A DNA stretch of 27,978 bases from an uncultured Anaerolineaceae bacterium (GTDB lineage: Bacteria > Chloroflexota > Limnocylindria > Limnocylindrales > CSP1-4). Below the pieces are notes generated by a model. The model was not told the origin of the DNA. It worked only from the letters and a program-made list of their open reading frames with translations, and did no database searches. Shown piece after piece: positions 24,683 through 27,978 of this stretch. Every line of letters starts with the position of its first letter. Position 1 is the stretch's first letter. The position numbers were made by a program, and so were the translations under genes. Location of the stretch: the NCBI GenBank assembly GCA_964603175.1, contig CAZRUC010000001.1, forward strand, positions 19,743 through 47,720, read 5' to 3'.

Positions 24683-26698
24683 ATGGATCGCGCGTCCGCA
24701 GGCACCGGGAGTTCGTCGAAGCCGATCGTCGGCCTCGCAGCCCTGCAAGACCTTGAGGTCATGCTCGACGGAATCGAGGACCTTGCGGCGCAGAGGTCGG
24801 TCTGCCGCCAGGTGCTGGAAGCCCGTCGTAAGCTCCTGGGAGCCGATCACCCGGCAACGCTCGAGGTGGATGCGCGTCTGGCAGCCATCGCCCTGGACCT
24901 CAACGAATTGCCGGTTGCGCGTGAGCAGTACTACGCGCTCCTGGAGCGCTGCGAGCGTGCCTACGGACCGCGCCACCTGGAGACCCTCTCCGCCCTCCAC
25001 GGACTGGCGGTCTCGCTGTCCTACCTCAATGAGCCCGAGACGGCGCGGCCCTTGTACGAACGGGTCGTGGCCGGGCGACGTTCGGCCCTCGGCTCGGAAG
25101 ATCCCGCCACGCTCAGTGCGCTCCACAACCTGGGCCTGACACAGCGAACCCTCGGCGACAATCACGGGGCCCGTACCACCCTCGAGACGCTGCTAGATGC
25201 TCAACGCAAAGTGCTCGGGCCCGAGCACCCCGCCACGCTTCGAACGATGACCGTCCTCGGGGCCGTGCTGATCGACATCGAGGAGTACCCGCGCGCTTGT
25301 GAGGTTCTGGCCGAACGGGTTGATCGCAGCCGCCGAGTCCTCGGTCCGACACACAGGGACACTCTCGAAGCGATGCTTAGCCTCGCGCGCGCCTTGTGCG
25401 GGTCCGGTGACCGGGCATCCGGCCGCTCCCTTTCGGAGCAAGGCCTGGCGGCCACGATCGCGACGCTGGGCCCGGACGATCCGGCCACGATCGCCGCGAT
25501 GGCCCATCACAGCCGCCTGCTGCTGAGGCTGGACGACGCCAAAGCCGCGGCGGCGGCGTACCGGGATCTATACGACCGCATGACCCGACTGCCGGGGCAG
25601 GACGAGATAGCCGTCCTCGACGCCCTAGCCGGGCTGACCGACGCGACGAGTCGTTGCGGTGACTTCCGGCGCGCGCGCGAACTCGATGAGCAACTTCTGG
25701 CGCGGCGGCTCGAACTGCTTGGACCGGATCACCCCGGGGTGCTCTGGGTCGTGGGCGATCTCGCCTGGAACCTGGAGCGGCTGGGCGACCTGGGTGGCGC
25801 CGCCGATCGCTTCCGGGAGGTTGCCGAGTCTCGTATTCGGACGCTGGGACCGGACGCGCCCGAGGTCGTTTGGGCTTTGAAAGGCAACGCCCGCGTGCTC
25901 GGTCGGATGGAGTCGCACGCAGACGCGCGGCGCGCGTACGCCACTCTCTATCAGACCCAGCGCCGCATCGCGGGTCCTGAGGCCACCGAAACGCTGGAGG
26001 CACTCGAAGGTCTCGCCTCGGAGCTGGGCAAGGTCGGCGAGCTCGAGGAGTCCCGGCGCCGCTGGGAGGAGCTTGCCGGCATCTTCGAGCGAATTCACGG
26101 ACCGAAGGACGAGCGCACGCTCAACGCCTTGATCGCGATCGCCGAAACGCTGGAGGACCTGGGCGACCTGGAAGGGGCCCGGACCATCTCCGAGCGCGTC
26201 GCCGGACCGCTGGGCCGCACCTACGCGAGCAATGCCGAGGCAAACGGTCCCGACGATCTGGGGACGCTGATTCTGGGCCGTAACCTCGGCCTGACCCTGG
26301 AGCGGCTCGGGCAGTTCGAGGCTGCCCGAACGACTTATCAGACAGCGCTGGATGGCTACGCCCGCCTTCAGGGCCGGCGCGGTCGTTCCGTGGCCGACCT
26401 TCGAGGTCACCTGGCCGACGTTGCCCGCAAGATGGCCGACCCCGAATCGGCGCACACCATGTATTGCGACGCGATCGGCATGATGCGCAAGCAGCCTGGC
26501 CCCGAGGATCCCGACACCCTGCGGCTCATCGGTCGGGACGCCGACGCTCTAGAAGCGCTGGGCCGAACGATCGCTGCCCGCAACCAGGCGCGCGCCGCGC
26601 TCGACGGCAGCCGCCACGCCTTCGGCGAGGGCAGCGTGCTGACACGGCAGGCCAAGGCTCGTCTCGAACGGTTATCGCTCAGGAAGCCCGCGCACTAG
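24683..26698 (+). CDS. Tetratricopeptide-repeat protein (kinesin-light-chain-type, ~15 repeats of ~42 aa)
   Basis: Recurring LG.DHP.TL...(N)L(A/G) units, e.g. LGADHPATL, YGPRHLETL, LGSEDPATL, LGPEHPATL, LGPDHPGVL, PGPEDPDTL. Confidence 0.9.
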   Translation: MDRASAGTGSSSKPIVGLAALQDLEVMLDGIEDLAAQRSVCRQVLEARRKLLGADHPATLEVDARLAAIALDLNELPVAREQYYALLERCERAYGPRHLETLSALHGLAVSLSYLNEPETARPLYERVVAGRRSALGSEDPATLSALHNLGLTQRTLGDNHGARTTLETLLDAQRKVLGPEHPATLRTMTVLGAVLIDIEEYPRACEVLAERVDRSRRVLGPTHRDTLEAMLSLARALCGSGDRASGRSLSEQGLAATIATLGPDDPATIAAMAHHSRLLLRLDDAKAAAAAYRDLYDRMTRLPGQDEIAVLDALAGLTDATSRCGDFRRARELDEQLLARRLELLGPDHPGVLWVVGDLAWNLERLGDLGGAADRFREVAESRIRTLGPDAPEVVWALKGNARVLGRMESHADARRAYATLYQTQRRIAGPEATETLEALEGLASELGKVGELEESRRRWEELAGIFERIHGPKDERTLNALIAIAETLEDLGDLEGARTISERVAGPLGRTYASNAEANGPDDLGTLILGRNLGLTLERLGQFEAARTTYQTALDGYARLQGRRGRSVADLRGHLADVARKMADPESAHTMYCDAIGMMRKQPGPEDPDTLRLIGRDADALEALGRTIAARNQARAALDGSRHAFGEGSVLTRQAKARLERLSLRKPAH

Positions 26699-27622
26699 AG
26701 CTGTCGCCGACGGACCGACCGCGGAGCTCGGCATCTGGCCCAGAACGACGCCTCCGAAGATCACCGCGCACGCCAGCATCTGAGCCGGGGCGAGGCTGTC
26801 CCCGAGCATCGCCCAACCTGTCACCAGAGCGACCACCGGCACGAGGTTTATGGCCATTGCGGTGCGACCCGCAGGCATCCTACTCAACGCGAAGTTGTAC
26901 AGGCCGGCCGGCAAGAGCGTGACCAGCATTCCCAGATACAGGACTCCGACCCAAGCATCGAGCGGAACGTGGCCCCATGCGTCGAGCGGCTCGAGGAGAA
27001 CGGCCGGCAGGAACAACACCCCTCCGACCAGGAATTGCAGGCCGGTCAGGAACCAGGGGTTGTAGCGACTCGTCAGTCGCTTGAGGGCCAGCATCGAGAT
27101 CGCGTAGCTGACCATCGCCAGAACTTCGAGCGCGTTTCCGAGCACGGGGTCCGGAGCCCCGGTCTGCCCGGGGGAGGCAAGCGACAGCACGACTACACCG
27201 ATGAGCGATGCCCCGAGCCCAACGACGGCACAGCCGGAAAGATGCTCGCTCATGAAGATGCGGGCGCCAACCGCCACGAGCAGCGGCACAAGTGCGGACA
27301 CGGTCCCGGCCTGGCCTGCGGTCGTCAAACGGAGAGCGTTGCCTTCGAGGACGTAATACACGCACGGATAGAGGAGAGCGATCAAGGCCAGCCATCGCCA
27401 GTCCCCGGCTCGCCGGTCGGGGGCCGGGACGCGGGACCAGAGCGGGAGCATGACGGCGGATGACAGGAGCATCCTCAGCGCCGCAACCACAAGCGGGCCG
27501 AACCCCGTAAGCGCAGCCTTGGTCGCCACGAAACTCGTGCCCCACAGGACCACGGCGGCGGCAAGCCCTGCGACGGGCAGCGCACCGGCGAGGCGAGTCG
27601 TCGACGCAGACGTCCGGCGCAC
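26672..27622 (-). CDS. DMT/EamA-family transporter
   Basis: VVLWGTSFVATK, VAALR, L..TTAG.A, GN.L...AM.SYA, Y.ALSR.PAG.....INL.PV.A...GW..LG. About 10 TMs in two EamA repeats. Probable start GTG 27622 after GAGG. Confidence 0.92.
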   Translation of the reverse strand: MRRTSASTTRLAGALPVAGLAAAVVLWGTSFVATKAALTGFGPLVVAALRMLLSSAVMLPLWSRVPAPDRRAGDWRWLALIALLYPCVYYVLEGNALRLTTAGQAGTVSALVPLLVAVGARIFMSEHLSGCAVVGLGASLIGVVVLSLASPGQTGAPDPVLGNALEVLAMVSYAISMLALKRLTSRYNPWFLTGLQFLVGGVLFLPAVLLEPLDAWGHVPLDAWVGVLYLGMLVTLLPAGLYNFALSRMPAGRTAMAINLVPVVALVTGWAMLGDSLAPAQMLACAVIFGGVVLGQMPSSAVGPSATALVRGLPER

Positions 27623-27737
27623 AGCTGGTACCTCGTGGCAGCAGGGGAAGCGACCGGGCGTCCGGCGCCGACAAGACGGTATCACCGTCCGAGTTTCGTG
27701 CGCGTCGATGCGCCCATCGCGTCCTGGCGGACCGCGC

Positions 27738-27767
27738 TTGCGCAAACAGCGGTCCCGCCATTACACT
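27738..27767 (+). promoter_or_regulatory. Candidate sigma70-type promoter TTGCGC-N18-TACACT, divergent from the EamA gene
   Basis: Direct match to -35/-10 spacing and consensus. A terminator lies ~170 nt downstream on the same strand. Confidence 0.55.
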
Positions 27768-27773
27768 CCGGCC

Positions 27774-27972
27774 TCGATGAATGCCCACACCTTCAGCCGC
27801 CGGGAGAACTCGCGCAGGGCCACCAGCCTGCGCAGTTCCATGATGGCCATGACTCGGCGGCCCCGAAGTGCGGAGGATGGGGTCTGAGGTTCTGGCTCAC
27901 CTAGCAGCGTAGCCGGACCAAGGATCGGTCCCGGGGCCGCGGTCTCCAGTCAGGAGCCGCGGTTCTTTGTTT
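27774..27972 (+). ncRNA. Putative ~200-nt structured leader or sRNA (riboswitch- or attenuator-like), class unassigned
   Basis: Bounded by the candidate promoter and terminator. Contains nested helices and a possible antiterminator (see findings). Confidence 0.45.
27935..27972 (+). terminator. Intrinsic terminator
   Basis: Stem GGCCGCGG(T)CTCC / GGAGCCGCGGTT with loop AGTCA, followed by CTTTGTTTC. Confidence 0.7.
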
Positions 27973-27978
27973 CTCCGG

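Follow-up and report, generated by a model that had tools for sequence, protein, structure and literature searches.

The window analyzed here is a 27,978-nt stretch of contig CAZRUC010000001.1 (assembly GCA_964603175.1) from an uncultured bacterium of the Chloroflexota class Limnocylindria. At its 3' end, on the + strand, lies a leader element made up of a promoter, a short open reading frame (ORF), nested RNA helices, and a predicted intrinsic terminator; the window end (27978) falls inside this element. A preliminary description, made from the sequence alone, had called it a candidate unclassified riboswitch or attenuator, and the promoter, ORF, 12-bp hairpin, enclosing helix, terminator, and terminator complement of that description were all recovered in place. 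Our analysis indicates that the element is probably a leaderless, ribosome-mediated transcription attenuator based on methionine (Met) and cysteine (Cys) codons, which controls the metY-metX operon of Limnocylindria (Chloroflexota). Its homologs fall into two types: type A, which includes the window and encodes MNAHTFSRRENSRRATSLRSSMMAMTRRPRSAEDGV, and type B, which encodes (M/V)THTQVSWNMCMRWRPRRAEDGV. The features of the locus are as follows.

27738-27743, + strand: -35-like box TTGCGC (TTGCGC in the window type and type A, TTGACG in type B; the surrounding DNA is variable)
27762-27767, + strand: -10-like box TACACT, 18 nt from the -35-like box (TAYRCT in type A, NANNAT in type B)
27777 (ATG) to 27885-27887 (TGA), + strand: leader ORF of 36 codons, MNAHTFSRRENSRRATSLRSSMMAMTRRPRSAEDGV and stop, with the frame kept in all homologs
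27796-27804, + strand: region 1, GCCGCCGGG, which pairs with CUCGGCGGC (27853-27861) and would sequester the 5' strand of the antiterminator when no ribosome stands between them
27806-27818 with 27827-27838, + strand: 12-bp 5' hairpin inside the ORF, type A only (93.3% of cells paired, two pairs changed on both sides)
27840-27851, + strand: putative regulatory codons ATG ATG GCC ATG (Met-Met-Ala-Met), a cluster just 5' of R2
27857-27865, + strand: R2, GCGGCCCCG, 5' strand of the antiterminator core, complementary to CGGGGCCGC (27932-27940) in the terminator 5' arm
27871-27877, + strand: CGGAGGA, resembling a Shine-Dalgarno (SD) sequence, within the ORF; it pairs with UUCUCCG (27971-27977) in read-through RNA according to the minimum free energy (MFE) fold of the window
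27875-27931, + strand: central hairpin (GGAU/GUCC, GUCU/GGAU, and GGUUCUGGCU/AGCCGGACC), which holds the stop codon (27885-27887) and stacks on the antiterminator
27913-27934, + strand: alternative hairpin P3 (CCGGACC/GGUCC-C-GG), exclusive with the central hairpin and formed in folds with a ribosome at the stop codon
27933-27947 with 27953-27966, + strand: predicted intrinsic terminator with a GC-rich stem, followed by TTCTTTGTTT, with U-tract UUCUUUGUUU, reaching to 27973; the U-rich tract is conserved
27971-27978, + strand: start of the post-terminator complement, UUCUCCGG, which extends past the window end as CACACGACGGGCAGCCGCC (R5), complementary to R2
26672-27622, - strand: EamA/DMT-family transporter gene, divergent from the leader and the sole neighboring minus-strand gene
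24683-26698, + strand: upstream neighboring gene for a TPR_12/TPR_10 repeat protein of 671 aa

An exact scan for the 21-mer at 27868-27888, with one genome per species, yielded 81 loci (L001-L081), almost all of them in metagenome-assembled genomes of the Chloroflexota 'Candidatus Limnocylindria/Limnocylindrales' and usually one per genome. The 21-mer is fixed in these loci by the search itself; variation within it was read from leaders fetched through MetY. Conservation of the element extends over >85 Limnocylindria genomes and metagenome contigs, and part of the stretch recurs nearly unchanged in many soil, peat, and rhizosphere metagenomes and metatranscriptomes, where contigs with unlike upstream sequences converge from position ~27760 onward. 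Such contigs had brought up a mobile-element end, a bridge/omega RNA, a group II intron 5' end, and a stable RNA as candidates; these were dropped, as all copies are single copy and fixed upstream of metY.

The preliminary description had expected the regulated gene to lie beyond the window. In essentially all loci, metY follows the leader on the same strand after ~190 to 270 nt, and this is the case in 23 of 23 window-type relatives. The metY product is a pyridoxal phosphate enzyme (PF01053, Cys_Met_Meta_PP) annotated in the source data as O-acetylhomoserine (thiol)-lyase, and the gene after metY usually encodes an Abhydrolase_1 protein of MetX size (MetX-like). A few operons start with another gene, encoding a beta-carbonic-anhydrase-like (Pro_CA) or OsmC-like protein, and still include metY. 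Such Pro_CA-like or OsmC-like first genes are seen at L016, L022, L029, and L074 and at L023, L052, and L070; as a speculation, a beta-carbonic-anhydrase-like enzyme controlled by Met/Cys might provide sulfide as a hydrolase of the COS/CS2 type. When metY loci were fetched without reference to the leader, the leader was found in every closely related locus (86 to 94% protein identity), and nhmmer detected it in none of 74 distant metY loci. A metagenome scan with MetY returned mostly distant homologs, which served as negative controls and as context for SAM-I, a riboswitch that occupies the leader position in 5 of 20 distant metY loci.

The association with metY bears on a reading in which the ~195-nt terminated transcript is primarily a trans-acting small RNA (sRNA), or in which the ORF gives rise to a small basic protein with a function of its own, the position upstream of metY being secondary. 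Trans functions have been described for sRNAs derived from attenuators and for leader peptides (rnTrpL/peTrpL; PMC7298713), and the leader is indeed present in metatranscriptome assemblies. However, its linkage to metY is strict in >85 loci with otherwise unrelated neighborhoods, the conserved sequence runs past the terminator to the metY ribosome-binding site (RBS), and the N-terminal part of the peptide is wholly different between types A and B. A trans role would in any case add to the cis role, not replace it, and we regard this reading as very unlikely.

Folding of the + strand gave an MFE of -100.5 kcal/mol (z = -2.68 versus dinucleotide shuffles), with the nested helices and the terminator contained in the MFE fold; the minus-strand fold was weaker (z = -1.69). 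Consensus promoter and terminator scanners flagged neither signal in the window. The promoter boxes are weak by Escherichia coli rules, and we therefore relied on conservation instead of scanners. Taken alone, the window sequence is suggestive but not compelling, and the case for more than chance is comparative. The modest z-score and the blank scanner output would suit the absence of any functional unit, i.e., a terminator of a minus-strand gene (a concern raised in the preliminary description) or chance complementarity in GC-rich DNA. Yet the U-tract is on the + strand, the EamA gene points away from the element, the minus-strand fold is the weaker of the two, and the element is conserved in register and with covariation across a bacterial class, always co-oriented with metY. 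The comparative sequence data refute this reading, to which we assign practically no probability.

The -10-like box always lies 9 nt 5' of an ATG or GTG codon, and the geometry (-35-like box, 18 nt, -10-like box, 9 nt, start codon) is the same in both leader types. The ORF has no SD sequence upstream of its start. Given this fixed distance and the missing SD sequence, the mRNA is predicted to be leaderless or to carry a leader of 2 to 3 nt, the transcription start site being placed by promoter geometry. The 36-codon ORF with its Met-Met-Ala-Met cluster had been proposed as a possible leader peptide, a proposal strengthened by the conserved frame and Met/Cys codons. The length from the RTGA start motif to the stop codon is always a multiple of 3, across at least nine length classes and in both types (63, 66, 69, or 72 nt in type B; 108, 114, 123, 126, or 129 nt in type A), and these classes include insertions of 15, 18, and 21 nt in the hairpin loop, all in frame. 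The noncoding spacers, on the other hand, take every residue modulo 3 (35 to 52 nt from stop codon to terminator and 53 to 90 nt from terminator to R5). This difference between a length that is always a multiple of 3 and freely varying spacers indicates that the leader ORF is a genuine reading frame under selection. Exact look-ups of three leader peptides in a collection of 15 billion proteins found all three absent.

The N-terminal halves of the type A and type B peptides are unrelated, and both types share a Met/Cys cluster followed by xxRPR(R/S)AEDGV and the stop codon. Within the 11 codons before the RPR(R/S)AEDGV tail, 73 of 74 distinct leaders have at least two in-frame Met codons and 58 of 74 have at least one Cys codon, with ranges of 2 to 5 Met and 0 to 3 Cys codons. 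The codon between Met codons is free (Ala, Ser, Val, Pro, or Cys), and one leader reads MRMAMGMAM, with five Met codons at two-codon spacing. The triplet ATG is in frame 170 times and out of frame 4 times, not counting the GGATGG that is fixed once in each sequence. In a strain contig (L176) otherwise identical to the window, ATT replaces the third Met codon (ATG, 27849-27851), giving MMAI; of the Met codons in the cluster, this last one has the least favorable position for antitermination.

The leaders fetched through MetY do vary within the 21-mer: GCG is changed to ACG in L162 and L164, GGG to GGC in L084, and UGAG to UGAC in L178 and L181, while the change of GUC to GCC in L174 is compensated by an A-to-G change in the partner loop. 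The divergent L179 reads VSTIRCSCRMFMQGRPRRSEDEVGIPR, with its stop codon 12 nt further 3'. It keeps R2 but uses a different sequence to form the central helix, P3, the terminator, and the post-terminator helix. These variants favor RNA pairing and Met/Cys codons, over a specific peptide, as the features apparently under selection.

The same variants bear on the possibility of a ligand-sensing arrest peptide (TnaC/SpeFL-like), in which a small molecule, e.g., Met or S-adenosylmethionine (SAM), would cause RPR(R/S)AEDGV to arrest the ribosome at the stop codon, so that region 2 of the RNA (the R2-to-stop-codon segment) is covered and termination enforced, with the Met codons secondary. In both leader types, conservation of the peptide is highest over its last 9 to 10 residues, several rare changes are synonymous third-position substitutions (CGA/CGC/CGU, GAU to GAC, and GGG to GGC/GGU), and dwell time at the stop codon could matter in type B, which has no strong region 1. 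The nucleotides of the tail, however, are constrained by pairing with up to three partners, and nonsynonymous changes do occur (A to T in L162 and L164; V to A in L174, where the RNA is compensated). The L179 tail, RPRRSEDEVGIPR, has its stop codon four codons later and fits an RNA constraint better than a peptide constraint. We know of no similarity between this peptide and known arrest peptides. An arrest peptide is unlikely.

The comparative alignments support the proposed RNA structures. In the named structures, 95 to 99% of cells are paired, compared with 27 to 59% when the partners are slid. For type A, the structure proposed for the off state is paired in 95.0% of cells (34 to 48% when slid), with double-sided changes in the region 1:2 helix, the 5' hairpin, the central hairpin, and the terminator, and the antiterminator conformer is paired in 97.6% (27 to 55% when slid), with three pairs changed on both sides. 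For type B, the antiterminator conformer is paired in 98.6% of cells (32 to 49% when slid), with three central-helix pairs changed on both sides; P3 is paired in 98.6%, with one-sided changes only; and the terminator is paired in 91.8%, with four double-sided pairs, one of which goes from G-C to A-U in 21 sequences. The terminator of type A is paired in 98.5% of cells. The region 1:2 helix (columns 21-29:105-113 of alignment A2) is paired in 89.8% of cells, with a G-C/G-U/A-U exchange at one pair. Changes in the 5' hairpin alter amino acids (S to Q and S to G), and the RNA constraint thus dominates there. The central hairpin of type A is 93.6 to 99% paired, with three pairs changed on both sides, and its 12-bp type B equivalent, GUCUGAGGUCACGC/GCGGGACCACAGAC, is 97.4% paired, with three double changes. 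The complementarity between R2 and the terminator arm holds in 100% of cells in type A and 99.6% in type B.

These counts refine several details of the preliminary description. Its two mutually exclusive hairpins are present but belong to a central helix that stacks on the antiterminator, and its 8-nt complement of the terminator is likewise present but is a small part of a far longer region 2 that runs from R2 through the stop codon. Of the covariation that it wanted to see in the antiterminator, the central helix provides some, and the 9-bp core, which is invariant, provides none.

We folded transcript intermediates of the window, modeling the ribosome by deleting the RNA up to its leading edge. 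With the first or second Met codon of the cluster (27840 or 27843) in the A site, i.e., with the RNA available from 27853 or 27856 on, the helix of R2 and the terminator arm forms with P = 0.99 to 1.0 until the 3' arm of the terminator emerges. In the free window RNA, R2 stays in the region 1:2 helix (P = 0.75), and the antiterminator has a P of 0.03 to 0.07. With the ribosome at the stop codon, its P is 0. In these folds, antitermination is favored by a ribosome on the first codon or two of the cluster but not by one on the last. One type B leader folded in the same way as the window under ribosome masks, and over 62 type B leaders in the stalled state the mean P was 0.99 for the helix of R2 and the terminator 5' arm, 0.95 for GGAU:GUCC, and 0.93 for GUCUGAGGUCACGC/GCGGGACCACAGAC. 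In these models, region 2 is the whole segment from R2 through the stop codon, most of which a ribosome terminating at UGA would cover. Together with the pairing counts, the folding of intermediates bears out the switch logic of sequestering helix, antiterminator, and terminator that had been read from the window.

The features expected of an attenuator that could be examined here are present, namely, a selected short ORF, a Met/Cys codon cluster, a predicted and covarying terminator, and an antiterminator that shares a strand with it; of the two types, only type A has a clear upstream sequestering helix. From the conservation, reading frame, codon content, pairing potentials, covariation, and downstream genes observed, we infer a transcription start, translation of the ORF, stalling, termination, and a response to methionine that would fit together as follows. 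Transcription would begin 0 to 3 nt before the ATG at 27777, so that 70S ribosomes load on the leaderless short ORF. The Met cluster at 27840-27851, which in most relatives also includes Cys, would lie directly 5' of region 2 (~27853-27900: R2, CGGAGGA, and the stop-codon segment). At low levels of charged Met-tRNA or Cys-tRNA, the ribosome would stall on the first codons of the cluster, part region 1 from R2, and free region 2. The freed region 2 would then pair with 27909-27940 into a long antiterminator rod (the core of R2 and the terminator 5' arm, plus the central hairpin), and the polymerase would read on into metY. When Met is plentiful, the ribosome would reach the UGA at 27885 and cover most of region 2, and after its release region 1 would recapture R2; in the shorter type B leaders, R2 would be retaken by a GGCG/CGCC hairpin close by and by the ORF 5' end. 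With R2 recaptured, the terminator (27933-27973) would form and transcription would stop.

Several observations weigh against this attenuator model or go beyond what it explains. At equilibrium the terminator, as soon as its 3' arm has been made, wins over the antiterminator: with ribosome masks, equilibrium folding never favored the antiterminator, and only transcript intermediates did so. The decision of the switch must then be kinetic, as in other attenuators. A ribosome on the last Met codon covers 4 to 5 nt of R2, and the P of the antiterminator is then 0. R2 alone would lie behind a ribosome at the stop codon, a difficulty resolved if, as modeled, a ribosome at UGA covers most of region 2. 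Type B leaders have no strong region 1, only a local 4-bp hairpin and weak pairing of the 5' end; the pairing of the type B ORF 5' end with the stop-codon segment showed covariation no better than shuffles, and in the free type B RNA the antiterminator reaches a P of ~0.45 before the 3' arm of the terminator emerges. In the 9-bp antiterminator core, the 5' strand never changes and its partner changes only from C to U (giving G-U pairs), which suits the pairing but is no true covariation. Neither the strong conservation of the RPR(R/S)AEDGV tail nor that of the post-terminator complement is required by a simple attenuator. The metatranscriptome contigs show no excess of terminated leader over metY, but in these assemblies (Logan), which mix species and blur transcript ends, this is not negative evidence. 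Finally, the contigs of the window's own genome break 42 nt past the window, short of any downstream gene; that gene was sought through the TPR and EamA proteins of the window, and the contigs obtained were short. The 42-nt extension comes from L176 and already includes the next conserved block of the leader.

This next block belongs to the post-terminator complement. Directly 3' of the U-tract lies UCCUCCG (UUCUCCG in the window, 27971-27977), and ~10 nt further on lies CACGACGGG(N3-4)CCGCC; the two complement CGGAGGA and R2/CCCG/CGUG in the 3' half of the ORF. The helix of R2 and R5 is 96.8% paired in 62 sequences, and the CGGAGGA helix (66-72:189-195 of alignment A1) is 93.5% paired. RNAalifold predicts this long-range helix, full-length leader ensembles give it a P of 0.63 to 0.77, and L179 maintains it by compensatory changes. 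Being transcribed after the terminator, the complement can have no influence on termination and would act only on read-through mRNA, in which UCCUCCG and the CACGACGGG..CCGCC block would pair again with CGGAGGA and R2. Its role may lie in mRNA locking or stabilization, in an RNase III site, or in coupling of leader translation to the metY RBS. In a calculation of UCCUCC sequestration, the unpaired probability of the metY SD sequence shifted slightly, from 0.24 to 0.36, with ribosome position.

Two further motifs were seen in this part of the leader. In most loci (e.g., L082, L164, and L162), a conserved CCGGGA(C/U)C, outside the window, follows R5 at a distance of ~20 to 40 nt and is preceded by a GGCCC-UCCCA-GGGCC hairpin; this CCGGGA(C/U)C complements GGUCCCGG (the P3 3' arm and the start of the terminator) and would form a pseudoknot with the read-through structure. 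In addition, type A leaders in alignment A2 have three sites at which a small hairpin rich in GC (GAGCGAAAGC...GCUUUCGCU and relatives) has been inserted, i.e., (i) the 5' hairpin loop in the ORF, with 15, 18, or 21 nt in frame (L002, L065, and L079; columns 51-71); (ii) the terminator loop (L025, L035, L040, L062, and L075; columns 201-221); and (iii) the segment between UCUCCG and R5 (L004, L071, L075, L079, and L084; columns 256-280). It looks like a recurrent mini-insertion or a mobile hairpin.

The preliminary description matched no known riboswitch class by eye, and searches with Rfam 15, which includes SAM-I to SAM-VI, SAM/SAH, and Streptomyces-metH/metK, likewise gave no hit at the gathering score in the whole window. 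In E-value mode, positions 27500-27978 gave only chance-level scores (best, 14 to 17 bits; E of ~1), and eight complete homologous loci gave nothing at the leader. A TPP riboswitch (64.6 bits) is found at L060:6572-6679, a few kilobases from the metY leader and unrelated to it. A metabolite-binding riboswitch for SAM, S-adenosylhomocysteine, Met, homocysteine, or a sulfur compound, with an aptamer from R2 to the terminator and an incidental or auxiliary ORF, would accordingly be new. Such a riboswitch would agree with the SAM-I control of the same gene in other phyla, with the strong nucleotide-level conservation of the core, and with an elaborate conserved architecture that has a closing helix in the full-length RNA. 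It would not account for a reading frame and start codon that survive many indels, nor for the Met/Cys cluster being the most consistent feature of the variable part. Moreover, nearly all conserved nucleotides are used in two or three alternative pairings, leaving few unpaired for a ligand pocket; the closing helix is 3' of the terminator and cannot sense anything before the termination decision; and L179 alters the J segment of the supposed core freely while pairing is kept. We found no positive evidence for the unclassified riboswitch proposed at the outset, and the frame, codons, and ribosome-dependent folding explain the element without a ligand. This reading is also improbable.

A combined possibility is that the tail peptide and the mRNA form a metabolite-sensing module, through stop-codon arrest by Met, SAM, or homocysteine or through an RNA pocket between R2 and the terminator that works with the ribosome, and thereby integrate tRNA charging with the free metabolite. 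If so, the post-terminator complement (UCCUCCG, R5, and CCGGGAYC) would be a second switch, translational or RNase III dependent, on the full-length mRNA. We consider such a module rather unlikely.

The leader and metY RNAs are both present in soil and wetland metatranscriptome assemblies, and in wetland metatranscriptomes the k-mer depth of Limnocylindria-type metY mRNA runs into the hundreds (L045:2300-3440; runs X26 and X45). The operon is strongly expressed in situ. The MetY family contains 0.3% Met and 0% Cys (L014:3771-5105, - strand, and 120 relatives, P0001-P0120), a sulfur-sparing composition that would fit expression under Met/Cys or sulfur shortage.

Around the leader, the 5' neighborhood is not conserved, and other loci hold ADH, luciferase-like, and RbsD genes there. 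Metagenome and metatranscriptome contigs show joints or loose ends at ~26790-27647, ~26885-27696, and 27645-27736 (one of them a joint), which point to related strains that have lost the greater part of the EamA gene or 90 nt of intergenic DNA.

Methionine genes are textbook cases of control by riboswitches (SAM), T-boxes, or proteins (MetJ/MetR). In the literature searched, a complete Met/Cys-codon attenuator with terminator and antiterminator is only hinted at in Streptomyces (metL) and has never been dissected, and nothing on Limnocylindria was found. The element would thus represent an old mechanism in a new family, for a new amino acid and in a new phylum, and would extend leader-peptide attenuation to the Chloroflexota. 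It would be a class-wide solution for metY-metX, at the place where other phyla put SAM-I, in an abundant and essentially uncultured soil and wetland lineage. Since metY mRNA is well represented in wetland metatranscriptomes, this control may be relevant to the in situ economy of sulfur and methionine. The leader can also serve as an annotation marker for an unannotated small ORF and would show, in a compact natural system, how leaderless translation can be coupled to intrinsic termination. The post-terminator re-pairing lies outside the textbook model and could reveal an extra layer of control, such as mRNA locking, processing, or translational coupling.

Among known systems, the SAM-I riboswitch (S-box) occupies the same position before the same gene and acts by premature intrinsic termination, as proposed for the element, but it senses SAM directly through a four-way-junction aptamer, involves no translation, and has no structural or sequence similarity to the element. 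In TnaC and SpeFL, as proposed here, the position of the ribosome on a leader ORF decides transcription of the operon, and a conserved C-terminal peptide lies beside the stop codon. Those systems use Rho-dependent termination and a defined peptide, whereas the element has a predicted intrinsic terminator and a tail that RNA pairing would explain and that is altered in L179.

The classical attenuators of E. coli (trpL, hisL, pheL, thrL, leuL, and ilvL) resemble the element more fully: their ORFs are rich in codons for the end product, their mutually exclusive 1:2, 2:3, and 3:4 pairings end in an intrinsic terminator, and a stalled ribosome frees region 2, which a ribosome at the stop codon masks. 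Unlike them, the element would sense Met and Cys, and its ORF is apparently leaderless rather than SD led. Its regulatory codons lie between regions 1 and 2 instead of inside region 1, its region 2 is ~45 nt long and would form a long rod, its post-terminator complement has no classical counterpart, and its host belongs to the Chloroflexota. To our knowledge, there is no Met attenuator among the classical or Rfam leader families. Leader-peptide systems were described in 2010 as known from Proteobacteria and Actinobacteria alone, with Firmicutes as a recent addition (PMC2965389).

The closest relatives in design are actinobacterial. In Mycobacterium, leaderless short ORFs with Cys codons precede cysteine genes (Seliverstov 2005, PMC1262725; Canestrari et al., bioRxiv 10.1101/834739), and in Streptomyces lividans a predicted leaderless 'metL' peptide, MSTTSDRTPATEATTTPGARCMCRRMCAF (...CMCRRMCAF), lies upstream of metNIQ (PMC8079986). 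These ORFs are leaderless, as predicted for that of the element, and like it they stand at the 5' end of a sulfur-amino-acid operon and belong to a high-GC, Gram-positive-type lineage, and the Met/Cys codons are near the C terminus in both (CMCRRMC in metL; MCMRW or MMAMTR in the element). The actinobacterial elements have no recognizable intrinsic terminator or antiterminator, and their mode of action is unclear or based on Rho or translation (PMC1262725; PMC8079986). The Limnocylindria element differs from them in its complete, covarying set of terminator and antiterminator, in having no sequence homology to them, in its target operon (metY-metX), and in its phylum.

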